Part shown: positions 2,587 to 29,112 of the stretch, piece after piece
How the letters are laid out: each line of letters opens with the position of its first letter
Position numbering within the stretch: the first letter of the stretch is position 1
Assembly (NCBI GenBank): GCA_964610055.1
Contig: CAZSUC010000002.1
Location: 82,283-146,282 of the forward strand
Direction of reading: 5' to 3'
Length of the DNA stretch: 64,000 nucleotides
Source of the DNA: an uncultured Candidatus Saccharibacteria bacterium
GTDB lineage: Bacteria > Patescibacteriota > Andersenbacteria > UBA10190
Position numbers and translations under genes: made by a program
Notes under the pieces: generated by a model
Database searches by the model: none
Seen by the model: only the letters and a program-made list of their open reading frames with translations
What the model was told of the DNA's origin: nothing

Positions 2587-3234
2587 ATGAATACAGAAGA
2601 ACTAAGCAATAATCAACATTCCTGGTCGGCGCGAGAGGAGTGGTGGCTAGGGTCAACATGGCATCGGTTTTTTGTGCGTCAGCGAGTATCGCGATTTTTA
2701 GAGTTGTGTCCAGAACCTTTTCGAGGAGAAGTTTTAGAAGTAGGGGCAGGGAAAGGTTGGACATCGCGACGTATTTTAGAGATATATCCGCAGGTAGAAC
2801 TAACTGCAACCGATATTAATGAAAAATCGGTAGAAGCGTTTCGAGATATGCGCAAGCAGTATGGTCGTCGATTATATGTAAAAAAAGCGGATGTGAGAAA
2901 GTTACCGTTTGATCGTTCGTCATTTGATATCGTGATTGCTGATCATGTGTTGCACTATGTGCAGGATTATAATCAAGCCTTGCAACAATTATTGCGTGTA
3001 TTACGGCCGGGTGGATTATTAGGAATAATTGGAAGTGAAAGACTGGGTGGAGCAAGTATGTCTCGTTGGTTGTGGCCGTCAGCAGGTAAATTGCCGCGGG
3101 CTGAATTGTTGAGCGATTTAACCCAAGAGAGTTGTACGATTTTGGCTGATAAAAAAAGAGGGCCGGAGTATTATTTATGGGTACGTAAATCATATCCGGT
3201 AGAAACTGAGGAAGAAAGATCGGGGCGAGCTTGA
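2587..3234 (+). CDS. class I SAM-dependent methyltransferase
   Basis: Motif I LEVGAGKGW, an acidic residue after beta-2 (TATDIN), and post-I VIADHVLHYV...LRPGGLL. This is the Methyltransf_11/12-type architecture. Confidence 0.8.
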   Translation: MNTEELSNNQHSWSAREEWWLGSTWHRFFVRQRVSRFLELCPEPFRGEVLEVGAGKGWTSRRILEIYPQVELTATDINEKSVEAFRDMRKQYGRRLYVKKADVRKLPFDRSSFDIVIADHVLHYVQDYNQALQQLLRVLRPGGLLGIIGSERLGGASMSRWLWPSAGKLPRAELLSDLTQESCTILADKKRGPEYYLWVRKSYPVETEEERSGRA

Positions 3235-3266
3235 CTGAGTTTGAAATCTGGGTACAGTGAAGGGCT

Positions 3267-4742
3267 ATGCAAATTAAGATTTTGCCAGTTAAGGCATCTT
3301 TGAAAGAGACTGAACTTAGTCTTTTTTTAATTAATATTGATCAAACACAGGGGCTAACGGAAGGATTGGAGATAAGAAAAGAACTAGCAAAATTAATTGA
3401 TCAATTACCAGATAAATTAACGGCTGGAGATAGTCACGTATTTTGGCAACAAAAAATCGGTGTAATCGGAGTAAATTGTAGCGATTCAGTAGTACGTCAG
3501 AATGAATGGGTGCGTAGAGGAATAGCTCAAGTGATCAGTCAGGTTCGCGCGTTTGGAATCCAAAAATTGACAATAGATTTGTCTGGTTGGAAAAGTGAGG
3601 ATGGCGCGAGGGTGGTAGCAGAAAGTTTGTGGTTGAGTCACTATACTTTTACGCAATTTTCAAATAAAGCACGAAAAGAGCATGAGAATCAGCGTATTAA
3701 AGAAGTGGGGATATATGTACCCGAGGATAAGGTATCTGCAGACCGAAAGAAGGTTAAAGAAGCGGAGAAAGTAATTAAAACGGTAGCCGAGGTACGTGAT
3801 TTGGTGAACTTGCCAGCAAATGAGATGTCTCCAAAAAAATTAGTACAGGTTGCACGAGAAATGGGGAAAAAGTATACCAATATCAAAGTTCAAATTTGGG
3901 ATAAAACAAGGATTAAGAAGGAAAAGATGCGCGCGTTTTTAGCGGTTTCGCAAGGTTCGGCTGAAGCGCCGTATGTGATTCGTTTGTCATATAAGCCAAA
4001 AGGAGCGCAGGTTAAATTAGCAGTTGTAGGGAAGGGCATTACTTTTGATTCAGGCGGATTAAGTATAAAACCAGCGGATTATATGCATGCTATGAAAATG
4101 GATATGGCGGGAGCGGCAGCCGTGATTGGTTTGTTTAAGATTTTAGGTGAAATGGGAGCGTTGATTGAGGTGCAAGGATACATTGCGGCGTGTGAGAATA
4201 TGCCGTCTGGAACGGCGTATCGACCAGGAGATGTAATTAAGAGTCGAAGCGGAAAAACAATTGAGATTAAAGATACGGACGCGGAAGGAAGAGTAACGTT
4301 AGCTGACATGCTGGATGTAGCGGTATCAGATCATCCGGATGCAATTATCGATATAGCAACTTTAACGGGAGCGTGTATGGTTGGTTTAGGTGAATCGGTA
4401 GCCGGCATGATGGGAAATGATTCAGGGTTGATGGAGCGAGTAGTGAAGGCATCTGAGCAAACAGGAGAACAAGTAGCGACATTGCCTTTGCCGTTAGAAT
4501 ATCGCAAGGATATTGAAAGTAAGGTGGCTGATATATGTAATTTATCAGCGGTAGCCTATGGCGGAGCGTTAACGGCAGGATTATTTTTACAGGAATTTGT
4601 TAAAGAGAAGCCATGGGTACATTTGGATATTGCGGGGCCAGCTTACATGGAGCGGGCAACATTGATTCCGTATTACACAGAAGGAGCGACAGGTTTTGGA
4701 ACGCGATTACTGTGGGAGGTTGTGCGAAGGTGGCGAAAATAA
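3267..4742 (+). CDS. pepA: leucyl aminopeptidase, M17 family
   Basis: VGKGITFDSGGLSIKP and NTDAEGRVTLAD signature motifs, and a length of 491 aa. Confidence 0.9.
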   Translation: MQIKILPVKASLKETELSLFLINIDQTQGLTEGLEIRKELAKLIDQLPDKLTAGDSHVFWQQKIGVIGVNCSDSVVRQNEWVRRGIAQVISQVRAFGIQKLTIDLSGWKSEDGARVVAESLWLSHYTFTQFSNKARKEHENQRIKEVGIYVPEDKVSADRKKVKEAEKVIKTVAEVRDLVNLPANEMSPKKLVQVAREMGKKYTNIKVQIWDKTRIKKEKMRAFLAVSQGSAEAPYVIRLSYKPKGAQVKLAVVGKGITFDSGGLSIKPADYMHAMKMDMAGAAAVIGLFKILGEMGALIEVQGYIAACENMPSGTAYRPGDVIKSRSGKTIEIKDTDAEGRVTLADMLDVAVSDHPDAIIDIATLTGACMVGLGESVAGMMGNDSGLMERVVKASEQTGEQVATLPLPLEYRKDIESKVADICNLSAVAYGGALTAGLFLQEFVKEKPWVHLDIAGPAYMERATLIPYYTEGATGFGTRLLWEVVRRWRK

Positions 4743-4755
4743 GGAAAAAGAGTTT

Positions 4756-5229
4756 CTAAATATTGTCGAGCAGTGAAGGAGTCCAAGTAGGGTAATCAGT
4801 TTGATCTTCATTGTCGTGATCAGTTTGATCGTAATAGAAAGACAAGTTGTTAGTTTCGTCAGCGGTGACAAGTGTGATCGAAACTTTTAGATCATGACCA
4901 GAGTCGGTTTCGGCGGGGATAATAGTGATTGTGTGTAGTTGATCGGATTTGGTGGCGTAATAGGAGCGCATAGGGATAATAAGAAGTCGGTTCAAATAGT
5001 CTTGGGTGGTGTCAATTTCTGAAGCAATACGAATATCGGGCTCAAGACCAAGATTTAAGCTTTGAGTAGGAGCGGGAGTAATAGCAGCCGGTAAGACTTT
5101 GTTGGTATTTAGGGAAGCAAGCTGGCCGGTTTGAAATAGTTTCCAGGTAATCCAAATAGCGGCGAGAGCAGCGATGAAAAAGCAGCACAGGGCGAGAGTA
5201 AAGAAAGAAATGAAACCATGACGAGACAT
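4756..5229 (-). CDS. hypothetical membrane-anchored protein
   Basis: N-terminal TM helix (FFTLALCCFFIAALAAIWITW). No recognised domain. Confidence 0.35.
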   Translation of the reverse strand: MSRHGFISFFTLALCCFFIAALAAIWITWKLFQTGQLASLNTNKVLPAAITPAPTQSLNLGLEPDIRIASEIDTTQDYLNRLLIIPMRSYYATKSDQLHTITIIPAETDSGHDLKVSITLVTADETNNLSFYYDQTDHDNEDQTDYPTWTPSLLDNI

Positions 5230-5238
5230 AGGCTGAAA

Positions 5239-6048
5239 TTAGTGATGGATAAGACGAAATAATCCAGAGAGAACAAAAAGAAAAGCAGATGTAAGAATAA
5301 TAGTGGGTCCAGAAGGAAGATTAAGAAAGGCACTGCAGATTAGACCAAATATAATAGCAATAATATTGACAATGACACTAATAACAAACATGCCAGCTAA
5401 ATTGCGAGAGAGGTTCTGAGCAGTGGCGGCTGGAATGATTAATAAAGCGGTAACTAAAATAATACCGACGAGTTTGATAGCAAGAGCGATGGTACCAGCT
5501 AAGGAAACTAAGAAGATGGTTTCATATAGATTAGCTCGTAATCCTTCGGCGCGAGCGAGGGATTCATCAAAACTAAGGGCAACCATTGGTTTGCCGATGA
5601 AGTATAAAATAATAAGGATCGCAAGAGATAAAATGGCGCTGAGGGTGACGTCGGTGGAAGTAATTGCCAAAATGTCACCGAATAGAAAGGCAATAAGATC
5701 GGATTGATAGCCGGGTGATAGTTGGACCAAAATAACTCCCAGAGCCATGGCAGTCGGGAAAGCGACGCCAAGGAGGGTATCGATTTGAATTTTTGAGCGG
5801 ATGCGTGCGGCGGAGATGAGGCCAGCAATAACTAAAGAGAAAGCAAAAGCCCCGAGGAAAGGATTAAAATTAAACAGAATACCTAGAGCGATACCGGTTA
5901 AAGCAGAATGACCAAGGGCATCCGAAAAGAAAGCCAGGCGACGTAAGACGACCAGAACGCCAAGAAAGGACATGGTTATACCGAGCATAAGTCCGGCTAG
6001 CAGAGCGCGTTGAAAAAAAGGCGATAAAATGAGATCAGTGATGGTCAT
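5239..6048 (-). CDS. znuB: metal (Zn/Mn) ABC transporter permease, ABC-3 family
   Basis: Polytopic membrane protein with ZnuB/MntB-like composition. Its start overlaps the stop of the upstream ATPase gene. Confidence 0.8.
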   Translation of the reverse strand: MTITDLILSPFFQRALLAGLMLGITMSFLGVLVVLRRLAFFSDALGHSALTGIALGILFNFNPFLGAFAFSLVIAGLISAARIRSKIQIDTLLGVAFPTAMALGVILVQLSPGYQSDLIAFLFGDILAITSTDVTLSAILSLAILIILYFIGKPMVALSFDESLARAEGLRANLYETIFLVSLAGTIALAIKLVGIILVTALLIIPAATAQNLSRNLAGMFVISVIVNIIAIIFGLICSAFLNLPSGPTIILTSAFLFVLSGLFRLIHH

Positions 6049-6796
6049 AGTGGTCGTGATTCATATGAACATGATGAGCGACAGGGGTGCCATACATTTG
6101 CTCTAAGACGTCATCGGACAGGACTTGATGGGGAGCCCCGGTGCAAAAAAGTTTTTGATTAAGACAAATGACTTGGGTGGCGAAACGAACAACAACATCA
6201 AGTTCATGACTAACTAAAACTAAAGTAAGATGATGTTCGGATTGGAGGCGAGCCAAGAGATTGTAGACGGTTTCTTGTCCTTGAACATCAACTCCGGAGA
6301 CGGGTTCATCCATAAGAATGAGACGTGGAGAATCCATTAAACTGTAAGCAATCAAGACGCGTTGTAACTGTCCGCCGGATAACGAGGATAAAGGAGCGGG
6401 AAGAAAATCAAGCATGGCCACCTCGTTCAGAAGATGTTTGGCTCGTGATAGTTCGTCTGGCTTAAGTCCGAGTCTGCGGCGTGATTTCAGGGAAAACAGA
6501 CCCTGAACGGTTAAGGGGAAATTATCCGGAAAATTCAGTCTTTGAGGGATGTAGGAGAGTAGAGGTGCAACAGCGGAAAAATTTTCATGGGGAATGCCAA
6601 AAATTTGAATCTTACCGGAGCGCTTAGGATTTAGCCGCAAGATGGTTTTTAAGAGGACTGATTTGCCGGCTCCGTTAGGGCCAATCACAGCAGCAGTTTC
6701 GCCAGTATTAACGGTTAAAGAAATATCGTTTAAGATCTGGTGGTTATTAAGAACCACTGAAAGCTGGTCGATAGATAGGGCGGGTGAGTTAGTCAT
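6035..6796 (-). CDS. znuC: metal ABC transporter ATP-binding protein
   Basis: Walker A GPNGAGKS, ABC signature LSGGQLQRV, and a His-rich C-terminal tail (HHVHMNHDHYDHH) typical of metal-sensing ZnuC/MntA. Confidence 0.85.
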   Translation of the reverse strand: MTNSPALSIDQLSVVLNNHQILNDISLTVNTGETAAVIGPNGAGKSVLLKTILRLNPKRSGKIQIFGIPHENFSAVAPLLSYIPQRLNFPDNFPLTVQGLFSLKSRRRLGLKPDELSRAKHLLNEVAMLDFLPAPLSSLSGGQLQRVLIAYSLMDSPRLILMDEPVSGVDVQGQETVYNLLARLQSEHHLTLVLVSHELDVVVRFATQVICLNQKLFCTGAPHQVLSDDVLEQMYGTPVAHHVHMNHDHYDHH

Positions 6797-6858
6797 TGGT
6801 TTTACTATATCTTTGAAAGGGGATAGTTTGCCAGAGGGTGTGATATAATAAAGTTCGT

Positions 6859-8586
6859 ATGGCTAACAATGAGGTAGTCCAGGTCGTAAAAGTACTGCTT
6901 GAAGCAGGCAGATTAAATGAAGAGCAAGCCAAAACGGCTGAGGCGGCAATTGGTGGTGGTCGAGGTGGGTATGACGTATTAGTCGGAGGGCAGTTGGTTG
7001 ATGAGGAGGCATACACTCAGGCTGTGGCACAAGTATTACAGGTACCATATATTTCGTTAAAAGGAGTTGCGATTTCTCGAGATGTGTTAAACGTGATTCC
7101 AGAATCAACTGCACGGGAACATTCAATTGTTGCTTATGAACAAGATGAAAGCAGCTTAAAAGTAGCAATGTTGGATCCGAGTGATCGTCAGATTGTGGAA
7201 TTTATACATAAAAAAGTAGATCAGCCAGTAACAGTAGCACTGGCAAGTGCTACGAGTATTAAGTGGGCGTTAGCTCAATATCGTGAAAGCTTAGAAGCGG
7301 AACTACAAAAGATACTGCAACAGTCTTCAGCTGGAATGGACGTAACGGATGATTTGAATAAAATTGCGGAAGATTTGCCGGTGGTGCGAACAGTTGACTT
7401 GATGTTGAGACACGCGATTTTACAGGGAGCGTCGGATATTCATATTGAGCCGTTAGAAGATAAGGTAGTAATTCGGTTTCGGGTGGATGGTTTGTTAAGG
7501 GATGTTCTATCGTTACCGAAAACATTTTTGGCGGGGTTGGTCGCTCGAATTAAAGTGTTAGCACATTTGAAGATTGACGAGCATCGTTTGCCTCAGGACG
7601 GCAGATTTAAAATCCAGTCTGATGATTATAAAGTGGCGTTTCGTGTGTCAGTGTTGCCAGTATACGACGGCGAAAAGTTAGTCATGCGTTTGTTGGATGA
7701 GTCGGGTAAAGGATTGGTGTTGGATTTATTAGGAATGAGACCAGATGTATTAGACGTATTTCGTCGTAATGTCCAAAAGCCTCACGGTATGATCTTAGTA
7801 ACAGGGCCAACTGGGTCTGGTAAAACTACGACTTTGTACGCCGCAATGAAGGAATTGAATGTGCCAGAGGTCAATATTAGTACGATTGAAGATCCAATTG
7901 AATATCGCATGCCAAGAGTTAACCAAACGCAGGTGAATCCTCAAATTGGATTAACTTTTGCATCGGGGTTACGAGCTTTAGTGCGTCAGGATCCGGACAT
8001 TATTATGGTTGGTGAAATTCGAGATGAAGAAACAGCCTCGTTAGCAATTAATGCTGCTTTAACAGGTCATTTGGTGCTATCTACTTTACACACTAATAGT
8101 GCATCTGGTGCATTACCGCGGTTGTTGGATATGGGGGTAGAAGCGTTCTTGGTGGCGTCGACGGCTAATTTATTGTTGGCCCAACGATTGGTGCGGCAAT
8201 TATGCAAGGATTGTCGGCAAGCAGCTAAAATTGATGAAAAAGTTTTGGCGGATGTTTTGAAGTTAGTCAGTGAAGAAAGATTAACAAGTGTTTTGCATCA
8301 GGAAGGCGTGTTAAAGGAAGGACAGAACTTGAAAGATATAGAAGTCTATCAGCCGGTGGGATGCAGTGTGTGTGGCGACGGGTATAAGGGGCGAGTTGGG
8401 ATATATGAAGTAATTGAAATGACAGATGAATTACGGGAGATGGTTTCAGAGAAAACAACTTCTCAGGATCTAGAAAACCTGGCCAAGACTCAACAGAAAA
8501 TGACCACGATGTTTGAAGATGGGTTTATAAAAGTGATGGCAGGTGAAACTTCGATTGCGGAAATCTTACGCGTAGCTAAGGAATAG
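6859..8586 (+). CDS. pilB: type IV pilus assembly ATPase (GspE/PilB family)
   Basis: N-terminal GSPII_E_N domain, Walker A GPTGSGKTTT, and a tetracysteine motif CKDC...CSVCGDG. Confidence 0.9.
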   Translation: MANNEVVQVVKVLLEAGRLNEEQAKTAEAAIGGGRGGYDVLVGGQLVDEEAYTQAVAQVLQVPYISLKGVAISRDVLNVIPESTAREHSIVAYEQDESSLKVAMLDPSDRQIVEFIHKKVDQPVTVALASATSIKWALAQYRESLEAELQKILQQSSAGMDVTDDLNKIAEDLPVVRTVDLMLRHAILQGASDIHIEPLEDKVVIRFRVDGLLRDVLSLPKTFLAGLVARIKVLAHLKIDEHRLPQDGRFKIQSDDYKVAFRVSVLPVYDGEKLVMRLLDESGKGLVLDLLGMRPDVLDVFRRNVQKPHGMILVTGPTGSGKTTTLYAAMKELNVPEVNISTIEDPIEYRMPRVNQTQVNPQIGLTFASGLRALVRQDPDIIMVGEIRDEETASLAINAALTGHLVLSTLHTNSASGALPRLLDMGVEAFLVASTANLLLAQRLVRQLCKDCRQAAKIDEKVLADVLKLVSEERLTSVLHQEGVLKEGQNLKDIEVYQPVGCSVCGDGYKGRVGIYEVIEMTDELREMVSEKTTSQDLENLAKTQQKMTTMFEDGFIKVMAGETSIAEILRVAKE

Positions 8587-8587
8587 T

Positions 8588-9805
8588 ATGTCCATTTTTG
8601 CATATCAGGGCAGAGATGAAAAAACAGGCGAGGTCGTATCGGGAATGCGAGAGGCGCCTAATCATGCGCAGCTAGGTCAAGATCTATTACAAGATGGGAT
8701 TTTATTAACTCGATATTCATTACAGAAAAAGCAGAGGCGCGGTGCGACTTTATGGGAATCGGTTTTTGAAAGAGTGCCATTGTTGGAGAAGATATTGTTT
8801 ACGCGATATTTTGCTTTGATGTTACGCGCCGGATTAGATGTTAAGCAGTCCTTACAAGCTTTGAGCGAGCAGACTAGGAATAAGTTTTTGAAAAAAGCAA
8901 TTGAGGGAATTATGCAGGCAGTTGATCGCGGGGTGGGGCTGTCAGATGCAATGAGAAATTATCCTATGTCGTTTTCTGATTTATTTATTAGTTTTGTGCG
9001 GGTAGGTGAGAGCACTGGTCGTTTGCAAGAGTCATTGTCAGTGTTATCGATTCAGATGCAGAAGGAGTATAACTTAAGGCGAGCGGTACGTGGTGGTTTG
9101 ATGTATCCCCTGGTAATTGTTGTTGTTTTAGTGGTGGTGGCGTTTGCGATGCTTGTATTTGTAGTACCGAAGTTGGCAGAAGTGTTTGAAGGGTTTGATG
9201 TAGAATTGCCATTAACAACAAGAATTTTAATAGCAGTTGGTGCTTTTTTTGAAGTGTATTGGTGGCTAGTGATTATTGGGGCAGTTATTTTAGGATCAAT
9301 TATCTGGATGTTAATGCTGGTGGATAAGGTTAAAGGCGGAGTGATGCATGCATTATTATTTATGCCAATTGTCGGTCCAATCATGAAACAAGTAAATTTA
9401 GCGCGATTCTCGCGTAATTTAAGCTCATTGCTACAGAGCGGAGTAAACTTTGTGGATGCTTTAGGAATTATGGGTGAGAATACGGCTCACCATAGTTATG
9501 CGCGAGTGTTATTAGGGGCGAGGGAGCATGTTCGGAAAGGTAAATCGTTGAGTGAATATCTGGCGGGACATGAGCGACTTTTTCCCCCGTTAGTTGTAAA
9601 TGTAGTTAAAGTTGGTGAGGAGACAGGGGCGTTAGATGAAGTGTTACGTGAGATTGCTTTGTTTTATGAAGAAGAAGTGGATCAGGTGATGAAGAATCTG
9701 ACGTCGGTAATGGAGCCAGTTTTGATGGTTGTGATTGGAATTGCAGTGGGGGCACTGGCGATTGCGGTTATCTCGCCGATTTATGGGTTGGTCAATGTTA
9801 TTTAA
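8588..9805 (+). CDS. pilC: type IV pilus platform protein (GspF/PilC family)
   Basis: Two T2SF domains and three TM segments. Its stop overlaps the start of the next gene (ATGTTATTTAA). Confidence 0.9.
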   Translation: MSIFAYQGRDEKTGEVVSGMREAPNHAQLGQDLLQDGILLTRYSLQKKQRRGATLWESVFERVPLLEKILFTRYFALMLRAGLDVKQSLQALSEQTRNKFLKKAIEGIMQAVDRGVGLSDAMRNYPMSFSDLFISFVRVGESTGRLQESLSVLSIQMQKEYNLRRAVRGGLMYPLVIVVVLVVVAFAMLVFVVPKLAEVFEGFDVELPLTTRILIAVGAFFEVYWWLVIIGAVILGSIIWMLMLVDKVKGGVMHALLFMPIVGPIMKQVNLARFSRNLSSLLQSGVNFVDALGIMGENTAHHSYARVLLGAREHVRKGKSLSEYLAGHERLFPPLVVNVVKVGEETGALDEVLREIALFYEEEVDQVMKNLTSVMEPVLMVVIGIAVGALAIAVISPIYGLVNVI

Positions 9806-11294
9806 TGAAAGTCGGACTAATGGGTTAACGCTGATCGAGGTTCTGTTAGCCACGGTTATTATTGGGATTATTGCGGTAGGAGCGTCAAATTTATTTTTGC
9901 TATCTATGCGGAGTTCACAGGAGGCGGAACGAAGAGTGGTGGCGATTGCGTTAGCAAATGAACGAATGGAAATGATTAGAAATTTGCCGTATGAGAACGT
10001 CGGTACGATAGGTGGGATACCGTCAGGCGCAATTGCGCAGGCAGAGACTATCACAAGAAACTCAATCAATTATGAAGTCAAAACAGAGGTGCGATATGTA
10101 GATGACGTATATGATGGTTCGGCGAGTGGGTCAACGGAAGAGGAGGATTTTATTATAATTTGTCATATTCCACCTGGACATCCGGAAAATCAGACGACAA
10201 TTAGAGTCGCAGCTTCAGCGTTGGATGCTCATTTAGCGCATGGTGATTACACGGGAGCCTGTGGCTCTGGCGGCGGTGATGGTACTGATGAAGGAGATGA
10301 TTATAACGGAGATTATAAATTGGCGCGGGTTGAGGTTGATTGGGCGAGCCAGTATGAGACTCAACCCGTACTTTTAATGACTTATATTGCACCAAAAGGA
10401 ATTGAGGGAGGTAGTCTAAGCGGAACATTAGACTTACAGATTGCATCAGCCGAAGGAGTGGGGATTGCGGAAGCAGATGTAGAGATTATTAGCGATCAAA
10501 CTGATCCGACAATTGATATTACAACCGAAACAAATGCGGAGGGGCGAGTAGTTATGCCTGGTTTTCCGGAAATGGCAGAAGCGTACCAAGTAATAGTGCA
10601 CAAGGACGGATATACGAGCGAACAAACTTATGCTGCAACTGATGATTTTTTACCTGATGCCGAACATACAAATTTGACGATGTTGGTGCAGCAAGTGACT
10701 TCTAAGTTGCTATTTATTGATTTGGTGGCACAAGTTGAATTAAAAACAGTTGACGCTGAGGGAGTAGTGATTGGAAATGTGCCGTATCATTGGCAAGGCG
10801 AGAAAACAATTGGACAAAATATTGATGAAGAGGGAAATACGACCGATGTGTATAAATTTGATCAAGATGGAACCACGGATCAGGCTGGCATAGCTTCTTT
10901 AGAAGACTTGGAGTGGGATACATATTCTATGTCCATTCCAGCCGAGAGTGGTTATATCGTAAAAGAATATTGGCCAGTGCATCCGTTTCAGATTGATCCG
11001 GGAACAGATACCGATGTAGAAGTAGTGTTAGTGCCGTATACGGATTATTCAGTGCAAGTAACAGTATTAGATTTGACGGGGGTGCCAGTGGATAATGCAA
11101 CGGTTCGTTTGGAAAAGGATGGCTTTAGCGAAGAGAATGGGACGGGTGTACGAGGTCAAGTTATATTTACTGATTTGCCTGAATTAGGAAACTATGACTT
11201 GTTTGTCGATGTGGGCAACTATGAGACTTATTCGCAAACAGTTCAAGTGTCAGGCAATGAAACGGTACAGGTATCATTAACTCCAGTAGTCTAA
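9795..11294 (+). CDS. large pilin-like protein with a class III (prepilin) signal peptide and CarboxypepD_reg/Ig-like beta domains
   Basis: Start chosen at the internal ATG (MLFNESRTNG|LTLIEVLLATVIIGI). Prepilin signature G/LTLIE with Glu+5. C-terminal repeats such as ATVRLEKDGF...GQVIFTDLPELGNYDL resemble carboxypeptidase-regulatory-like folds. Confidence 0.7.
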   Translation: MLFNESRTNGLTLIEVLLATVIIGIIAVGASNLFLLSMRSSQEAERRVVAIALANERMEMIRNLPYENVGTIGGIPSGAIAQAETITRNSINYEVKTEVRYVDDVYDGSASGSTEEEDFIIICHIPPGHPENQTTIRVAASALDAHLAHGDYTGACGSGGGDGTDEGDDYNGDYKLARVEVDWASQYETQPVLLMTYIAPKGIEGGSLSGTLDLQIASAEGVGIAEADVEIISDQTDPTIDITTETNAEGRVVMPGFPEMAEAYQVIVHKDGYTSEQTYAATDDFLPDAEHTNLTMLVQQVTSKLLFIDLVAQVELKTVDAEGVVIGNVPYHWQGEKTIGQNIDEEGNTTDVYKFDQDGTTDQAGIASLEDLEWDTYSMSIPAESGYIVKEYWPVHPFQIDPGTDTDVEVVLVPYTDYSVQVTVLDLTGVPVDNATVRLEKDGFSEENGTGVRGQVIFTDLPELGNYDLFVDVGNYETYSQTVQVSGNETVQVSLTPVV

Positions 11295-11297
11295 GGT

Positions 11298-11906
11298 ATG
11301 GAAAAAGGCTTTACAGTTATTGAAGTGGTGGTTGTTTTAGGTATTACTTCGGTTTTGATTACGGCCTTGTTGCGATTTGTAGCAGCTGGGTATCCTTTAT
11401 CGCGAGTGACATATTTGCAGCAGCGCTCAACTGAAACAGCGAGATTGCAATTAAAGCGGATCGCAAAAGCAATTAGAGAAGCGCGTCCATCGGATGCGGG
11501 TGCTTATCCGCTAGTAGAAATGGAGGATCAGAAATTAGTTTTTTATGCTGATGTTGATGACGACGGGGCGACAGAAATGGTGCGATATGAATTAGACGGG
11601 ACAGATTTAATTTATGGGATTATTGAGCCGTCCGGAGATCCGATTGAATATGACCCTGGGAGTGAAATTACGAGAATTGTGACTCATGATGTACGGAATG
11701 GATTTGATCCTATTTTTGTATATTACTCAGGTGATTATCCAGACGATCAAACTCCTCTAACTCCGGTTGATGTAACTGAGGTGAAATATATTCAGTTTGC
11801 ACTGGTAATTGATGTAAATCCGGATGTGGATCCGCAGCCGATTCAGGTTATTTCACAGGTTCAAATTCGAAACTTAAAAGATAATTTAGGCGACACAGTA
11901 GAATAG
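11298..11906 (+). CDS. pilin/pseudopilin with a prepilin-type N-terminal cleavage/methylation domain
   Basis: MEKG|FTVIEVVVVLGITSVL is a canonical class III signal with Glu+5. It is 202 aa long and has no Cys. Confidence 0.75.
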   Translation: MEKGFTVIEVVVVLGITSVLITALLRFVAAGYPLSRVTYLQQRSTETARLQLKRIAKAIREARPSDAGAYPLVEMEDQKLVFYADVDDDGATEMVRYELDGTDLIYGIIEPSGDPIEYDPGSEITRIVTHDVRNGFDPIFVYYSGDYPDDQTPLTPVDVTEVKYIQFALVIDVNPDVDPQPIQVISQVQIRNLKDNLGDTVE

Positions 11907-11952
11907 GTGAGCTCTTGTCAGGTGAGTTAAATGGCTTTTAAGATAGAGGGAT

Positions 11953-13320
11953 ATGAAAAAGCCTGATCAAATAATAATTGTGTTTCTGCTAGCGGTGGGG
12001 ATCTTGGTGCATTTTATTGGTTTGAAGTATCCGGACCAGGTTGTCTTTGATGAAGTCCATTTTGGTAAATTTGTCACTGCTTATTGTTGTACGCATCAAA
12101 ATTTTTTTGATATTCATCCACCGCATGCCAAGTTGCTAATTGCAGGGGCGGCTTGGTTGGGTGGCTATCGGGGTGGTTTTTCGTTTGATCATATTGGTCA
12201 GGAATATGCGGAAGTGCCAATTGAAGCGTTAAGATTTATCCCAGCTTTGGCGGGGTCGATTTTAGCAGCAATTATATATGGTTTGTTACGGAAATTAGGA
12301 GTAAGTCGACAATTAGCAGTAATTAGTGGGTTGGCGGTGGTATTAGAGAATGCCACGATAGTGCAGACAAGGATGATTTCGTTGGACGGAGTGTTGTTAG
12401 TCGCTATTTTTGGAAGTCTGAGCTGCTATTTGTCAGCTGAGAAAAATAGTGGTCGGAAGAAATATTACTGGCTAGTAGGGGCGGGCGCTTTAGCCGGCTT
12501 AGCAGTCGGGACTAAATTTACAGGGCTAACAATTGTGGGGTTATTAGGAGTAATGCTTGCGGTTGAGTGGATAAAGCGGATTTATCGAAGAGAAAATTGG
12601 CGCGAAACAATACGCTCAGGGGGAGTGATAGCGATAGCAGCGATCTTAGTTTATTTAACTGGCTGGGTAATTCATTTTAGTTTGTTAGATTTACCGGGTA
12701 GCGGTGACGCGTTTCATAAAACTGATTTTTCTGAGAATGTTGTGATTGATTTTTTCCGCGAAACATACGAATTACATAAGGTTATGCTGTCAGCTAATTA
12801 TGGCTTAAAAGCAACACATGATTATGCGAGTCAGTGGTGGCAGTGGCCAATTATGCAGAGATCGGTGTTTTATTGGCAGAGCGAGGGGCGAATGATTTAT
12901 TTCTTAGGTAACCCAGCTGTTTGGCTAGGCAGCGGTTTATTGTTAGCGGTGGCCATGATTAGTGCGTTGATTTTGTTTGGGCAGAAAATACAGTCTCGCT
13001 GGGTGCAGCAAGCAAAATCGGTCCGAATTTGGATTCCAGTGATTGGTTATTTGATTGGTTATATACCATTGATGCGAGTGCCTAGGTCTTTGTTTTTGTA
13101 TCATTATTTAACTCCCTTATTGTTTGGCATCTTAACAGGAACTATATGGTTAGAGATCGTGACTAAGGACAGTCGGGATAAAAGTTGGTATCAGATTGGA
13201 ACAGGAGTGATTTTTGGCCTAATAGTTTTAGGATTCGTATGGTGGTCACCGTTAACATATGGTTGGCTAGCGCCGGATAATTGGATGAGTAATTTATTTT
13301 GGGTGCCAAGTTGGCGATAA
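11953..13320 (+). CDS. PMT/GT39-family (dolichyl-phosphate-mannose-protein mannosyltransferase-like) polyprenyl-phosphate-sugar-dependent glycosyltransferase
   Basis: VVFDEVHFGKF...FDIHPPHAKLL matches the PMT loop-1 DE motif and HPPL(A)K(L/M)L. It is a polytopic membrane protein of 455 aa. Confidence 0.65.
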   Translation: MKKPDQIIIVFLLAVGILVHFIGLKYPDQVVFDEVHFGKFVTAYCCTHQNFFDIHPPHAKLLIAGAAWLGGYRGGFSFDHIGQEYAEVPIEALRFIPALAGSILAAIIYGLLRKLGVSRQLAVISGLAVVLENATIVQTRMISLDGVLLVAIFGSLSCYLSAEKNSGRKKYYWLVGAGALAGLAVGTKFTGLTIVGLLGVMLAVEWIKRIYRRENWRETIRSGGVIAIAAILVYLTGWVIHFSLLDLPGSGDAFHKTDFSENVVIDFFRETYELHKVMLSANYGLKATHDYASQWWQWPIMQRSVFYWQSEGRMIYFLGNPAVWLGSGLLLAVAMISALILFGQKIQSRWVQQAKSVRIWIPVIGYLIGYIPLMRVPRSLFLYHYLTPLLFGILTGTIWLEIVTKDSRDKSWYQIGTGVIFGLIVLGFVWWSPLTYGWLAPDNWMSNLFWVPSWR

Positions 13321-24816: not shown

Positions 24817-25284
24817 TTGAGCAATACTCAAGGTATGAAAGATTTGGCGTACAATAAGCGGGCAGTGTTTGATTATGACTTGCTGGAAAAGTTTGAAGGC
24901 GGGTTAAAATTGATGGGAACAGAGGTAAAATCGGTGCGAGCAGGGAATGTGAGCCTTAAAGGCGCGTTTGTGACATTGAAAGACGGAGAAGTGTGGCTGA
25001 CAAATGCGACGATTTCGCCTTGGCAGCCAGCCAATGCACCGACTGATTATGACCCAACTCAGCCCCGGAAGGTGCTTTTGAGCCGAGCCGAGATTAAGAA
25101 ATTGATTGGAGCCAAGGAAGCAAAGGGATTGACAATAGTGCCTATTAAGATGTATAATAAACGTTCACGGATTAAGTTAGAATTGGCTTTGGCACGGGGA
25201 AAGCGGCAATACGAGAAGAAAGAACAAAAGAAAGAGCATGATATTAAGCGGGATATTGACCGAATGTTAAGAGGAAAGGAATAG
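24817..25284 (+). CDS. smpB: SsrA-binding protein SmpB
   Basis: NKRAVFDYDLLEKFEGGLKLMGTEVKSVR. The track's start is TTG; the true start may be the ATG at 24835. Confidence 0.95.
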   Translation: MSNTQGMKDLAYNKRAVFDYDLLEKFEGGLKLMGTEVKSVRAGNVSLKGAFVTLKDGEVWLTNATISPWQPANAPTDYDPTQPRKVLLSRAEIKKLIGAKEAKGLTIVPIKMYNKRSRIKLELALARGKRQYEKKEQKKEHDIKRDIDRMLRGKE

Positions 25285-25326: not shown

Positions 25327-25731
25327 GGGCATGCTAGGCCTCGATAAGATGTAGCTTTGACAATATGCGTGTCGTGAGGGGATTAGCTCACGTAAATCCC
25401 ATAGTCCAACGTTCAAGTGCAAACGTATTTCAGCGCGTGAAGACAGCATTTGCTAACGCATTTGCTACCCCTTCTTTTGCGCCTGTTGTCGCTTAATCTC
25501 GACAGCCATCGCTTCTAATCAGCCGTTGGGTTAATAAGCGGTGTCATTTCAAACGGCTCTCAAGTGTGAGTTTTATTAGTGCTAACACTTGGAAAAGCAC
25601 CAACTGATAGGTGGCTAACAGGCTTTTCTGTTTTGTAGCTGGCTAGGTACCTAAAACTTTTTAAGACAGATACGCACGTAGATTATTGTCGAATCACATT
25701 TTACACGGCGGTTCAATTCCGCCCATGTCCA
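25327..25731 (+). ncRNA. ssrA: transfer-messenger RNA (tmRNA, SsrA)
   Basis: Immediately downstream of smpB. The 5' GGGCATG pairs with the 3' CATGTCC (with a G3-U wobble) plus a discriminator A. A T-arm GGCGG-TTCAATT-CCGCC precedes the acceptor 3' strand. A candidate tag ORF (...ANAFATPSFAPVVA*) ends with TAA at 25494-25496. The CCA is not encoded. Confidence 0.7.
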
Positions 25732-25894
25732 CTGTTGTAAACAAAGCAAAAATATACCAAAACAAGGTGAGACATTTGGAATACCTTGGCATTATTACTA
25801 TCATGTTCTACTATCGTTTGTTGAGATTGTAGCATGAGTGTCCTTTTAACCTGGCTGTATTAAGCAGCCAAAACCTCTCAGCGGAGAAAGTGAA

Positions 25895-26326
25895 ATGAGG
25901 AAACTGCTAAGCAAACAGATAGGTGTTCATTTCTTGTTCTGTGCGAGCCCGGTCACGATCGACAAGCGAGCGGAGTGGGGTGATAGCGCCGACAATCTTC
26001 AGCAGGCACCGAACGGCGCGTTTCTGAAAACGTCATCGCCGACGGAAATCAGCCATCTGGTACAGCCTAACGCCGACAAGACGGCACCTATCGGCTGGAT
26101 GCCTGGATCTGCTCCCGGCCTCTTTAACAAATTGCCGATCTGGGTTGATGATGAGTACCTTCTTCAAGTTGGTGAGGTCAAGAAGCTCGCTACGGCCGAT
26201 GGCGAAATCGAGTACACGGCTAAGGAGCTCTCGATGGTGTGCTATAACGACCTGAATGGCACCCCAAACGAAGCCGATGCCTGGGTACAGACGGTCGCCG
26301 CCGTCAAACAAAACTACGAACTGTAG
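25895..26326 (+). CDS. hypothetical protein; compositionally foreign ORF
   Basis: GC content visibly higher than the flanks (roughly 57% versus 45%) and GCC/GGC/CTC-rich codon usage unlike neighbouring genes. No recognisable motif. Confidence 0.4.
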   Translation: MRKLLSKQIGVHFLFCASPVTIDKRAEWGDSADNLQQAPNGAFLKTSSPTEISHLVQPNADKTAPIGWMPGSAPGLFNKLPIWVDDEYLLQVGEVKKLATADGEIEYTAKELSMVCYNDLNGTPNEADAWVQTVAAVKQNYEL

Positions 26327-26347
26327 ACGAGGCTCTCTCTACTTAAT

Positions 26348-26385
26348 CGAGGATGGTTAGTTTTAGTAACACCCTGTGCGTGATG
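26348..26385 (+). terminator. intrinsic terminator after the GC-rich ORF
   Basis: aacaccctg-N11-cggggtgtt hairpin followed by TTTTTCTTT. Confidence 0.55.
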
Positions 26386-26452
26386 TGCGGGGTGTTTTTC
26401 TTTACAAAGAAGTGATTTACGGCGCGCAAGGTGCATAGATGACTCTTTCTAC

Positions 26453-26481
26453 TTGACAATTATGAAATAAGGAGCTATCAT
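26453..26481 (+). promoter_or_regulatory. sigma70-type promoter, TTGACA-17-TATCAT
   Basis: Perfect -35 hexamer, 17-nt spacer and a 5/6 match to the -10 consensus, about 25 nt upstream of the ORF at 26507. Confidence 0.5.
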
Positions 26482-26506
26482 ATAGTTTGAAATTAAGGAT
26501 GGTTTT

Positions 26507-26797
26507 TTGAAAATTGAGAATTTTGAAAAAGGAGAGACCGATGCCTTTGTTGTTTGTGTTGTTTGTTTGGTTGCTGGGCTTTGTGGCGGGGTATTTTTCG
26601 CATTTCCCGTGCTTGTTGGGATTTCGATCCTTTGTTTCGTGATCGGAATCTGGCTGTGTGTTACGTGTAAGGAGGCGGAACAGCTGGTATCAATGCTGTT
26701 TGTTGGGATTGCGACGATCATTAATGTTGTAATGTGGATGACTTACTACATTACAACGGGGCAAACTTGGTTGGGAGATTTCTTCTTACGCAGGTAG
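26507..26797 (+). CDS. small Cys-rich membrane protein (three TM helices), hypothetical
   Basis: TTG start 8 nt after AAGGA. 96 aa, very hydrophobic. Flanked by its own promoter and terminator. Confidence 0.35.
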   Translation: MKIENFEKGETDAFVVCVVCLVAGLCGGVFFAFPVLVGISILCFVIGIWLCVTCKEAEQLVSMLFVGIATIINVVMWMTYYITTGQTWLGDFFLRR

Positions 26798-26827
26798 GCA
26801 GAATAATCCGCGTTGTCTCTTTCCGCA

Positions 26828-26866
26828 CCACCTCTTGAGTTGTTCTCTTGAGGTGGTTTTTTGTTT
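26828..26866 (+). terminator. intrinsic terminator
   Basis: ccacctcttgag-ttgtt-ctcttgaggtgg hairpin followed by TTTTTTGTTT. Confidence 0.7.
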
Positions 26867-26934
26867 AAGAACATGTTGTCAATGGCTATTAGTTGTGTTT
26901 CAAAATTGCCAAGCTATTAAACATTACGCCACTG

Positions 26935-26962
26935 TTGACAGTGTGACTAGAAATAATAAGAT
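26935..26962 (+). promoter_or_regulatory. sigma70-type promoter, TTGACA-16-TAAGAT
   Basis: Perfect -35 hexamer. The same TTGACA-N16-TAAGAT architecture recurs at 27655. Confidence 0.45.
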
Positions 26963-27002
26963 TACTGGTTCTAACCTGCTCTTTTCATAAGGAGAATATG
27001 TC

Positions 27003-27446
27003 GTGAAAACCAACATGAAAGACTGGATTAATCATGTAGAAACTGTGCGGCCAGTGATGGATGCCTTAATCAAACAGTTGGAATCGTATGGCGCTGTTGT
27101 GGCGGCTAAAAAAACTAGAGAAGTAGGTAGCTTACCTTACACGGTGACGTTCAGATGGTCACGAGAGAGGGCAATTACCACTATCGGCGTCACGCTGAAA
27201 GATCACCAAACAGAGTCGGACGTAGTCATTACCAACATGACCACTTTGCCTAGAGAAAAGCGCCGACTAGGTTTTGGGGGTCAAGCCGTACATCGGGTAA
27301 TAGCGTGGGCTAGAGAGTGCCGGTTCAATGAAGTTAGGGCTACTCAAGTGAGCGGAGCAGAATCATTCTGGCGCAATAATGGTTTTGTTCAATGCCCTCA
27401 ACCTAATCCGTGCAATGACTTTGTGTATCGTCTTAGCAGCTCATGA
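27003..27446 (+). CDS. GNAT-family N-acetyltransferase-like protein
   Basis: GTG start 9 nt after AAGGAGA. RRLGFGGQAV fits the GNAT motif A (R/Q-x-x-G-x-G/A), followed by FWRNNGF. Confidence 0.45.
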   Translation: MKTNMKDWINHVETVRPVMDALIKQLESYGAVVAAKKTREVGSLPYTVTFRWSRERAITTIGVTLKDHQTESDVVITNMTTLPREKRRLGFGGQAVHRVIAWARECRFNEVRATQVSGAESFWRNNGFVQCPQPNPCNDFVYRLSSS

Positions 27447-27472
27447 CCTGCAAGTGAGAATCGGTTTGCTAT

Positions 27473-27514
27473 AACCGCTGCGTTTCTTCGGAAATGTCAG
27501 CGGTTTTTCTTTTA
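27473..27514 (+). terminator. intrinsic terminator
   Basis: aaccgctg...cagcggtt stem with an inner tttc-[ttcg]-gaaa tetraloop, followed by TTTTTCTTTT. Confidence 0.7.
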
Positions 27515-27590
27515 CTATATCTGAAACCAACTCCAACTCCGGATCCGAGTTTAAGTCCGACACCGTAATACAGTAATTGTTCGGGGCAAG

Positions 27591-27627
27591 AAGCGCTATC
27601 AGGTTGATCTGATGGCGCTTTTATATT
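27591..27627 (+). terminator. second hairpin followed by a T-run (terminator-like)
   Basis: aagcgctatcag-gttgat-ctgatggcgctt followed by TTTATATT. Confidence 0.4.
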
Positions 27628-27654
27628 GGCGAATAATTATTACTTTTAGTCAAT

Positions 27655-27682
27655 GATAGGGCTATTGACAATTTAGATAGAA
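27655..27682 (+). promoter_or_regulatory. sigma70-type promoter, TTGACA-16-TAAGAT
   Basis: The -10 element ends only 8 nt before the first ATG of the SulP ORF, so the transcript would be leaderless or nearly so. Confidence 0.45.
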
Positions 27683-27690
27683 AACATAAG

Positions 27691-29112
27691 ATGGGCGCTG
27701 CGGTGAAACAAACCGCTTTTTTTTTATTGATTCTTTATAAAGTTATGCAGCAAGAAATGAATGTGAATCGGATTTTTCATAATGTAATGGCCGGTTTGAC
27801 GGTGAGTTTTGTGGCCTTAAGTTTAGGTGCGGCATTTGGATTATTGTCAGGAAGAGGGGCATTTGCGGGCATGATGTCAGCGGCAATTATTGCTAGCGTA
27901 ACGGCAGCTTTTGGTGGAACGCGTATTCAAACCTCAGGGCCAACAGGGCCAATGACGGCAGTAACGGCGGTGGCAGTAGCGGCGGCACATGATGGAATTA
28001 CTGCTGTCGGTACAAGTAACCCAGAACATTTTATTAATATAGTTGTGATATTGACCGGGGTGTGTTTATTGATAATGGGTGTGTTACGACTAGGTAAATT
28101 TATTACCTATGTACCAAATGTAGTTATATCTGGGTTTATGAATGGGATAGCTATTATTATTTGGATGGATCAGATAAAAAAGCTTTTTGGGTGGGGAGGA
28201 AAGGTTGCTTTTACAGGATCAGTGACAGTGAATGTCTGCGTGACGATCATAACTACAGTGTTAGTGTTTGGTTTGCCGGTGTTAGTACGACGATACTGGT
28301 CAAAAATGGCTAGTCTGTTATCTGGGACATTATTGGCGATTTTGATAATGACGGCTATAAGTGTGTGGTTGCATTTGCCAATTGAACATGTGTCTTTAAC
28401 TTCTTCCATTAAATCTTGGAATGATGCAGGGCAATTAATATTGTCCCAATGGCCACGAGATTGGTCTAAAGGTGTGTTGATGGCCGCTTTGCCATTTGCT
28501 TTACAATTGGCAGTGTTGGCATATTTAGACACTTTGTTAACGTCGTTAGTAATTGATAAAATGACTAGCGAACGGACTAGACAAAATAAAGAATTGATCG
28601 CGCAAGGATTTGGAGCGGCATTAGTAGGGTTAGTAGGAGGAATTCCTGGGGCGCAGGCAACAATCCGGTCAGTATTGATAGTAAAAGAAAAGGCGGATAT
28701 GCGTTTAGCTGGGATTATGGTAGGAGTCTTTGCTTTAGTTGAAATGTTGGCATTTCAGAATCTAATTAATTTAATTCCTCAGGCAGTGTTTGCAGGAGTG
28801 TTAATAAAAGTTGGTTATGATGTATTTGATTGGGTGCCAGTGAAACTGTATTTAAAAGAATTATTAAAAGGTAAAAGTGAGATGTGGCGTAATTTTTTAG
28901 CGCGGCATGATAGTAATCCAATATTTGTAACTAATCGAGAAATGTTAATGATTATTGGAACAACACTAGTGACAGTTTTGTTTGATTTAAATACGGCAGT
29001 TGGGGTGTTTACGGTGTTGTATTACGTATTAAATAAATGGTTAATGAAACAGAATCCAATGCGTGATTTGAAACCAGTCTTAGAGACTGAAGGAGTGGCA
29101 GACGAAGGGTAG
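27691..29112 (+). CDS. SulP-family inorganic anion transporter (no STAS domain evident)
   Basis: Sulfate_transp-like N-terminus (NVMAGLTVSFVALSLGAAFG..., GGTRIQTSGPTGPMTAVTA). Polytopic, 473 aa. The start is uncertain; downstream ATGs are possible. Confidence 0.75.
   Translation: MGAAVKQTAFFLLILYKVMQQEMNVNRIFHNVMAGLTVSFVALSLGAAFGLLSGRGAFAGMMSAAIIASVTAAFGGTRIQTSGPTGPMTAVTAVAVAAAHDGITAVGTSNPEHFINIVVILTGVCLLIMGVLRLGKFITYVPNVVISGFMNGIAIIIWMDQIKKLFGWGGKVAFTGSVTVNVCVTIITTVLVFGLPVLVRRYWSKMASLLSGTLLAILIMTAISVWLHLPIEHVSLTSSIKSWNDAGQLILSQWPRDWSKGVLMAALPFALQLAVLAYLDTLLTSLVIDKMTSERTRQNKELIAQGFGAALVGLVGGIPGAQATIRSVLIVKEKADMRLAGIMVGVFALVEMLAFQNLINLIPQAVFAGVLIKVGYDVFDWVPVKLYLKELLKGKSEMWRNFLARHDSNPIFVTNREMLMIIGTTLVTVLFDLNTAVGVFTVLYYVLNKWLMKQNPMRDLKPVLETEGVADEG

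Follow-up and report, generated by a model that had tools for sequence, protein, structure and literature searches.

A probable horizontally acquired islet of three self-contained gene units directly 3' of ssrA in an Andersenbacteria-like bacterium

Results

Three small genes between ssrA and a SulP gene

In a 64,000-nt stretch (64 kb; hereafter the window) of contig CAZSUC010000002.1, from an uncultured Andersenbacteria-like bacterium, three small open reading frames (ORF1, ORF2, and ORF3) occupy the 1.9 kb between the gene for transfer-messenger RNA (tmRNA; ssrA) and the predicted promoter of a SulP-family transporter. We argue below that this segment is probably of horizontal origin, a lineage-specific islet made up of three autonomous, unrelated units. 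It begins at 25735, the base right after the Rfam tmRNA match, and its features, with its left border, are as follows.

25327-25734, plus strand: tmRNA (ssrA); full-length match to Rfam RF00023 at 114.2 bits; left border of the islet
25786-25814, plus strand: promoter-like site of unit 1, TTGGCA-N17-TACTAT, weaker
25895-26326, plus strand: ORF1, 143 aa, predicted all-beta, conserved uncharacterized family; compositionally foreign
26368-26405, plus strand: predicted intrinsic terminator of unit 1; hairpin 26368-26396 with a 12-13 bp stem, then UUUUUCUUU
26453-26481, plus strand: promoter-like site of unit 2, TTGACA-N17-TATCAT, 11/12 consensus
26507-26797, plus strand: ORF2, 96 aa, three hydrophobic segments; small conserved family
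26827-26864, plus strand: predicted intrinsic terminator of unit 2; hairpin 26827-26857, ACCACCUC...GAGGUGGU, then UUUUUUG; folding z-score -2.9
26935-26962, plus strand: promoter-like site of unit 3, TTGACA-N16-TAAGAT
27003-27446, plus strand: ORF3, 147 aa, divergent GNAT acetyltransferase (putative); compositionally foreign
27473-27515, plus strand: predicted intrinsic terminator of unit 3; hairpin 27473-27505, 14 bp with a UUCG loop, then a U tract; folding z-score -3.3
27590-27621, plus strand: orphan hairpin, perfect 13 bp, -22.8 kcal/mol, z-score -4.4, then a U/A-rich tail
27665-27692, plus strand: promoter-like site before SulP, TTGACA-N16-TAAGAT; approximate right border of the islet

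An earlier note on this DNA had drawn attention to long non-coding gaps 3' of ssrA amid otherwise packed genes, and the counts bear it out. Intergenic gaps in the window have a median of 13.5 nt and reach 100 nt in only 6 of 62 cases; four of these six are consecutive in 25735-27745 (160, 180, 205, and 299 nt). The sole other long non-coding gap besides those of the islet and the tRNA-Leu flank measures 286 nt and lies at 2301-2586.

The spacers are rich in candidate expression signals. With both strands of the 64 kb counted, the pattern TTGACA-N16-18-TAnnnT has only six matches, and three of these lie in islet spacers. Two perfect TTGACA promoters are where the earlier note put them (26453 and 26935), while the third starts at 27665 rather than 27655; the shared layout that it saw in two of them holds for the sites at 26935 and 27665. 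That note had also given each ORF a rho-independent terminator. A stable hairpin followed by a U tract is indeed present at all three, at coordinates slightly different from those first proposed. The spacers match no riboswitch or small RNA family in Rfam, where the only hits were sub-threshold chance matches to L10_leader and Atu_C9.

Strand composition sets the three genes apart

The window has an extreme and uniform strand asymmetry. Its GC skew is about +0.30 in each 2-kb block throughout, and the plus-strand GC skew at third codon positions (GC3 skew) is +0.58 ± 0.14 over the 61 genes on which our gene statistics are based, irrespective of coding strand. About 50 of the 61 genes lie on the plus strand. 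Of the two syntenic relatives described below, one (L037) has a similar skew, which is absent from the other (L036).

Against this background, ORF1, ORF3, and ORF2 have the three lowest GC3 skews of the 61 genes (0.02, 0.075, and 0.36). With the pooled G3 fraction of the genome (0.81) as reference, they give binomial P values of 1e-10, 6e-7, and 0.03, respectively, and ORF1 and ORF3 lie about 4 standard deviations off the genomic GC3 skew. ORF1 also has a GC content of 0.54 versus 0.44 for the window (z = +4), the highest of all 432-nt stretches in it, so the description of this ORF as GC-rich was apt. Its GC3 is 0.65, compared with 0.40 ± 0.05 for the window, 0.49 for ORF2, and 0.45 for ORF3. 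Measured quantitatively, as had been proposed, composition is thus not uniform here: GC, GC3, and GC3 skew all yield outliers in the islet. Skew is likewise near zero in three of the four spacers (sp0, 25735-25894; sp2, 26798-27002; sp3, 27447-27745). Beyond the islet, SulP (GC3 skew 0.51) and the genes past it are native-like in composition.

An alternative is that the trio is native and descended vertically, with wide spacing and strong signals that reflect only high, independent expression. All three families have homologues in candidate-phyla bacteria, and the composition of ORF2 is near native. However, the highly expressed neighbors infC, rpmI, rplT, and smpB keep the genomic GC3 skew (0.42-0.60), so the anomalous skew is not due to expression level, and the size of the ORF1 and ORF3 deviations also argues against this alternative. 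Further evidence against it comes from the relatives considered next, which lack the trio, and from ORF1, which is far closer to a protein of another candidate phylum than the housekeeping proteins are to those of clade relatives. Taking both sides together, we regard a native origin as very improbable.

Collinearity with relatives stops at the tmRNA

A search of SmpB against GTDB species genomes and JGI metagenomes gave a best match of 50-55% identity, and looking up exact proteins led back to the same contig alone, in 100% identical copies from three runs of one project, and to no close relative. Two syntenic Andersenbacteria-like contigs, L036 and L037, were reached via homologues of IF3, for which the best relatives of the host are labeled Candidatus Andersenbacteria, in the Parcubacteria group. 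Their identity to the window is 66-67% for SmpB, 62-63% for IF3, and 73% for the epimerase.

Both contigs share at least 12 genes in collinear order with the window, ending at smpB-ssrA: pilM-like genes, CTP-transferase, thioredoxin, PrsW, epimerase, VanZ, rplT, rpmI, infC, and the divergently transcribed smpB-ssrA pair. The tmRNA aligns well with theirs, and homology ends directly past ...CCATGTCCAC. From there on, the genes of L036 and L037 differ from those of the window and include, in both, a GIY-YIG gene and a 66-aa gene. The earlier note had named synteny downstream of ssrA as a check; no homologue of ORF1, ORF2, ORF3, or SulP lies within 9 kb of ssrA in either contig. Conversely, no remnant of the genes that follow ssrA in L036 and L037 turned up in the window.

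Two side observations concern this neighborhood. The GIY-YIG endonuclease-domain gene stands right after the tmRNA in both relatives (L036 8338-8592; L037 7856-8134; 72% identical to each other), and L037 has a second copy near pilM. These genes may be mobile, homing-endonuclease-like elements that mark the same variable spot. In more distant relatives (L001, L022, L023), smpB is also found near argS, ileS, infC, and rplT, and the neighborhood is therefore old, though rearranged.

No trace of an integrase or of a duplicated attachment site

The 3' end of ssrA is a classical target of integrase-mediated islands and prophages. The segment could accordingly be the remnant of a single such element that has lost its integrase, its distal attachment (att) site, and most of its genes. 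Besides the location, this idea can draw on the ORF1 relatives found on three contigs classed as viral by IMG/VR, and on the orphan hairpin at 27590-27621 and the long non-coding spacers, which could be debris of lost genes. The expected signs of integration are missing, however. With up to 3 mismatches allowed, the 3'-terminal 21-mer of the tmRNA has no second copy in the 64 kb, no direct-repeat family detected by the repeat finder takes in 25700-25740, and no ORF from 25.7 to 31.7 kb (as far as argS) has an integrase domain. Pfam and PHROG find no phage genes in the neighborhood, and no ORF of at least 40 aa is left unexplained. Six-frame translation of the largest spacer, 299 nt long, disclosed no ORF or gene remnant in the flank of the orphan hairpin. 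Finally, the GC3 values (0.65, 0.49, and 0.45) and GC3 skews (0.02, 0.36, and 0.08) of ORF1, ORF2, and ORF3 differ strongly, more than one would expect from a single donor.

The pattern search, repeat finder, and domain scan thus came back as empty as the earlier note had reported for integrase and att repeat. Its picture of a decayed or cargo-only island holds insofar as the islet appears foreign, lineage-specific, and devoid of both. A single decayed island is a minor rival that we judge unlikely.

ORF1 represents a widespread family that behaves as a cassette

ORF1 is not the orphan that it was first taken for. We found at least 84 homologous clusters with 41-86% identity, spread over candidate-phyla bacteria and the three IMG/VR viral contigs. 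By prediction, ORF1 is a cytoplasmic all-beta protein with a confident AlphaFold model (pLDDT 96.4). Residues C16, W28, Q36, K45, W68, K79, and D102 are invariant in the family, His54 is near-invariant, and there is a motif SHLVQPN-D. ORF1 belongs to no Pfam, NCBIfam, PHROG, or PADLOC family. A profile search of the PDB returned nothing, and Foldseek matched the model to no PDB entry above a TM score of 0.2. Matches in BFVD, to one unnamed 332-aa protein (TM 0.50) and, weakly, to PGDYG proteins, were judged insignificant. An identity as a RyR-domain (RyDEP) or Macro-domain (Adpp) protein was rejected, since ORF1 is all-beta and lacks a Pfam match.

The closest labeled relative of ORF1 comes from across a phylum boundary. 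MSR86637.1 from Candidatus Peribacteria, a different candidate phylum, is 85% identical to it. By comparison, IF3 of the host is 62-66% identical to that of clade relatives and 80% identical to that of one short contig, with no Peribacteria entry among its top 120 matches. Together with composition, this disparity indicates transfer from a donor of higher GC and without strand skew.

In three other bacterial contexts the ORF1 homologue is solitary and set in unrelated neighborhoods. Homologues elsewhere are each preceded, at about 100 nt, by a near-consensus promoter and followed by a terminator of their own; the weaker site at 25786-25814 aligns with TTGACA-N17-TATAAT and TTGACT-N16-TATAAT of two of them (L014 and L020). 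A predicted promoter and terminator that recur in unrelated contexts suggest that ORF1 behaves as a self-contained cassette. On a 118-kb contig classed as viral by IMG/VR (L041), we also observed that an ORF1-family gene adjoins a ribonucleotide reductase large subunit gene with an intein (LAGLIDADG domain) at 3135-6341.

ORF1 relatives adjoin NAD+ genes in three contexts

Seven distinct contexts of ORF1 relatives were readable. In three of them, the gene lies within about 2 kb of a gene of the nicotinamide phosphoribosyltransferase family (Nampt/Namat). The first (L017) has the order Nampt, a weak cytidylyltransferase-like gene (possible NMNAT), NadE, ORF1 homologue. The second (L040, 161 kb, IMG/VR viral) has a Nudix-domain gene, Nampt, an HNH gene, and the ORF1 homologue. 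The third (L042, 77 kb, IMG/VR viral) has an operon at 6001-9919 composed of a Prs-like gene, a Metallophos (calcineurin-like phosphoesterase) gene, a gene for a 121-aa unknown protein, the ORF1 homologue, and a NAMPT-like gene. Here the ORF1 homologue is translationally coupled on both sides, with ATGA overlaps to the 121-aa gene and the Namat-type gene. The NAMPT-like enzyme matches 9W5X and 9W5W at E = 6e-138, versus about 1e-62 for canonical Nampt, and the Prs-like protein matches ribose-phosphate pyrophosphokinases.

The two structures are those of phage Namat (PMC12774641). Phage NAD+ reconstitution systems have been described as NARP1, which consists of Adps and Namat (bioRxiv 10.1101/2024.02.11.579819), NARP2, which consists of Nampt and Nmnat, and NARP1-AP, which is NARP1 with a Macro-domain phosphatase (for the latter two, bioRxiv 10.1101/2024.02.11.579819, 10.64898/2026.01.28.702374; PMC12774641). 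Extended NARP1 operons carrying extra accessory genes have been reported as well (bioRxiv 10.64898/2026.01.28.702374). With its Prs-like and Namat-type genes, the L042 operon has the make-up of NARP1, and its five genes look like an undescribed extended NARP1 variant.

Seen from the NAD+ side, the association is sparse. Only 1 of the 80 best viral NAMPT loci has an ORF1 homologue, and neither ORF1 nor the L042 homologue has a match among isolated phage genomes. A second viral scan with divergent ORF1 family members added no new loci. There is no NAMPT gene in the window, and here and in two other bacterial contexts the ORF1 gene stands alone, with no NAD gene nearby.

ORF2 belongs to a small membrane protein family

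ORF2 has 47 representative homologues, 11 of them with E of at most 1e-10, in a family of proteins of about 85-90 aa. They share the three hydrophobic segments and a conserved C-terminal motif, N..MW.TYY..T.QTW.G.F...LR, which points to a small membrane protein; no Pfam family corresponds to it. Thus, the three membrane segments of the "Cys-rich three-transmembrane mini-protein" of the earlier note are upheld, while its cysteines are not conserved across the family and probably reflect the G+T-rich coding strand. The family alignment of ORF2 varied too much to serve in scanning loci. Within ORF2, an alternative-frame ORF of 33 codons at 26541-26642 (MPLLFVLFVWLLGF...) has a perfect ribosome-binding context, AAGGAG-N6-ATG. 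Because homologues back the 96-aa frame, it is probably a by-product of G+T-rich sequence.

ORF3 is a putative GNAT enzyme without a partner

Fold, motif, and family matches agree that the third ORF is GNAT-like, as first noticed. PF00583 is matched by 17 of 22 family members, ORF3 itself falling under the Pfam cut-off (17.9 vs 20.7 bits). Motif A (Q/R-x-x-G-x-G/A) reads RRLGFGGQA at residues 86-94, with G90 and G92 invariant in the family alignment. The AlphaFold model (pLDDT 93.9) had 31 Foldseek matches in the PDB at E of at most 1e-3, and all 50 matches listed are GNATs. By this model, ORF3 is a compact GNAT acyltransferase of putative activity. It has no relatives on viral contigs, and its homologues in four independent contexts (L034, L035, L038, and L039) have no conserved neighbor. 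In L039 (at 10375-12234), a more distant Patescibacteria contig, the ORF3-family GNAT is about 4.5 kb from an smpB-(ssrA)-infC-rpmI-rplT cluster, probably by coincidence.

The earlier note had wondered whether ORF2 and ORF3 form a toxin/immunity module. Such a pair would join a GNAT toxin or modifying enzyme to a membrane immunity or partner protein. The two genes are indeed adjacent on the same strand, and the GNAT toxins AtaT, KacT, TacT, and GmvT are among the Foldseek matches of ORF3. However, these matches are no better than those to spermidine, streptothricin, and N-terminal acetyltransferases, with TM scores of 0.40-0.53 throughout. A strong predicted terminator (26827-26864) and a separate promoter (26935-26962) would part the two genes. 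The ORF2-family hidden Markov model detected nothing at any of the four ORF3-homologue loci, or at the other loci fetched, and no ORF1-family gene occurs at those four loci either. Beside ORF3 there is no antitoxin of the RHH or DUF1778 type, and PADLOC gave no significant match. A functional ORF2-ORF3 pair is hardly credible, and the three islet genes, as far as their sequences and contexts tell, constitute no functional module.

The flanking genes

The features that frame the islet are the following.

24817-25284, plus strand: smpB; Pfam SmpB, E 6.5e-50; last gene collinear with relatives
25129-25158, plus strand: consensus promoter TTGACA-N18-TATAAT, 12/12 match, within the smpB 3' end
27746-29112, plus strand: SulP-family transporter; Pfam Sulfate_transp, E 1.8e-52, from residue 29 of the long ORF

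On the left, the tmRNA starts 42 nt after smpB; ARAGORN gave no tmRNA call, whereas Rfam did. The consensus promoter, 169 nt before the mature tmRNA begins, is probably that of ssrA, which would imply a long precursor leader. The open frame of the tmRNA at 25418-25496 reads ANVFQRVKTAFANAFATPSFAPVVA and then a stop from the likely resume codon, so that the tag, at about 25 aa, would be unusually long. In L037 the tag frame is shorter by 15 nt (5 codons).

On the right, the orphan hairpin may have terminated a cassette that has since been lost, or may be a small RNA; its only Rfam match is sub-threshold and on the other strand. The first bases of the long SulP ORF (start 27691) fall within the -10 element of the promoter predicted for it, and a GCGGT...ACCGC hairpin with a T9 tract follows at 27700-27725 (fold z-score -0.7, not significant). 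With this element and the hairpin plus T9 tract overlapping the initial 35 nt of the long ORF, SulP probably starts at a later ATG, 27746 or 27758. The 27700-27725 hairpin could be a weak leader attenuator.

Discussion

The origin of the islet

We favor the view that the 1.9 kb from the tmRNA to the SulP promoter arrived horizontally. In the scenario that we propose, each unit would have brought one small gene together with its sigma-70-type promoter, Shine-Dalgarno site, and intrinsic terminator. The units would have been placed exactly at the ssrA 3' end, where collinearity with relatives stops. Because the three differ in composition, they may have accreted piecemeal rather than in one event. 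Having neither mobility genes nor an att duplication, the islet would now be fixed cargo.

Several points weigh against this account. First, ORF2 stands out only marginally in composition (P = 0.03); it could be native or an older arrival. Second, ORF1 homologues elsewhere are also somewhat GC-richer than their own hosts (z = 0.7-1.5), so part of the GC excess of ORF1 is intrinsic to the family. Third, ORF1 and the Peribacteria copy are just 51% identical at third codon positions, which means that the Peribacteria lineage was not a direct, recent donor. Fourth, the nearest genomes available are distant, at about 62-73% protein identity; absence from them shows lineage specificity but not when the genes were acquired. 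Fifth, the genes after ssrA in L037 carry native skew, so the break in that genome may stem from rearrangement long ago and not from a hotspot that is active today. Finally, the promoters and terminators of the three units are predictions.

Implications

The islet is of an ordinary kind among accessory elements, and its chief value is the lead provided by the ORF1 family. This family may be an undescribed accessory part of the salvage or reconstitution of NAD+ from nicotinamide, with a possible role in counter-defense or NAD homeostasis. Its genes would then shuttle as self-expressed cassettes between candidate-phyla bacteria and phage-like elements, and the one next to ssrA would be a captured copy. 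We put this forward tentatively and would expect it to fail more readily than to hold. Since the linkage is one-sided (1 of 80 viral loci, no isolated phage, no NAMPT in the window), a role in NAD metabolism is a lead and not a finding. The lead is nonetheless testable: a conserved family without an assigned fold recurs beside Nampt/Namat and in one case lies within a NARP1-type operon. The depletion of NAD+ and its reconstitution form a very active front of the conflict between phages and bacteria, and extended NARP operons have only recently been described.

The locus may be relevant in other ways. First, it suggests that the 3' flank of ssrA is a site of accessory-gene turnover also in a minimal-genome, uncultivated Andersenbacteria-like lineage. 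Second, it suggests that genes can reach this flank as complete promoter-gene-terminator units without a visible integrase. Finally, the extreme strand skew of the genome makes foreign DNA unusually easy to spot and could help to chart horizontal transfer across the group.

Comparison with known systems

It is useful to set the islet and its genes beside systems that they resemble. ORF3 shares with GNATs (PF00583, including the toxins AtaT, TacT, and KacT) the predicted fold and an R-x-x-G-x-G-type motif. It differs in a divergent N-terminal half that opens with one long helix and in a family-specific C-terminal PNPCNDF. Unlike the GNAT/RHH toxin-antitoxin systems AtaT-AtaR, TacT-TacA, and KacT-KacA, it has no co-transcribed antitoxin partner. 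As for NARP operons, ORF1 is not Adps, Namat, Nmnat, a Macro-domain phosphatase, or a RyR-domain protein, whereas its relatives adjoin Nampt/Namat in three of the seven contexts and NARP1 operons are known to bear accessory genes.

Like the islands and prophages that adjoin ssrA, the islet sits at the tmRNA 3' end, has atypical composition and accessory cargo, and is absent from relatives. In contrast to them, it has no tyrosine integrase or duplicated ssrA 3' end, and it consists of 1.9 kb with three genes of heterogeneous composition in an Andersenbacteria-like host.

The morons that Hendrix and colleagues reportedly recognized in phages are autonomous promoter-gene-terminator units inserted between conserved genes. 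The units of the islet differ from these in lying outside a recognizable prophage, three in tandem on a bacterial chromosome. In other respects the two are alike: each islet unit has one gene, its own predicted sigma-70-type promoter and terminator, and a composition unlike that of its neighbors, and ORF1 homologues bear a promoter and a terminator of their own in other genomes too.

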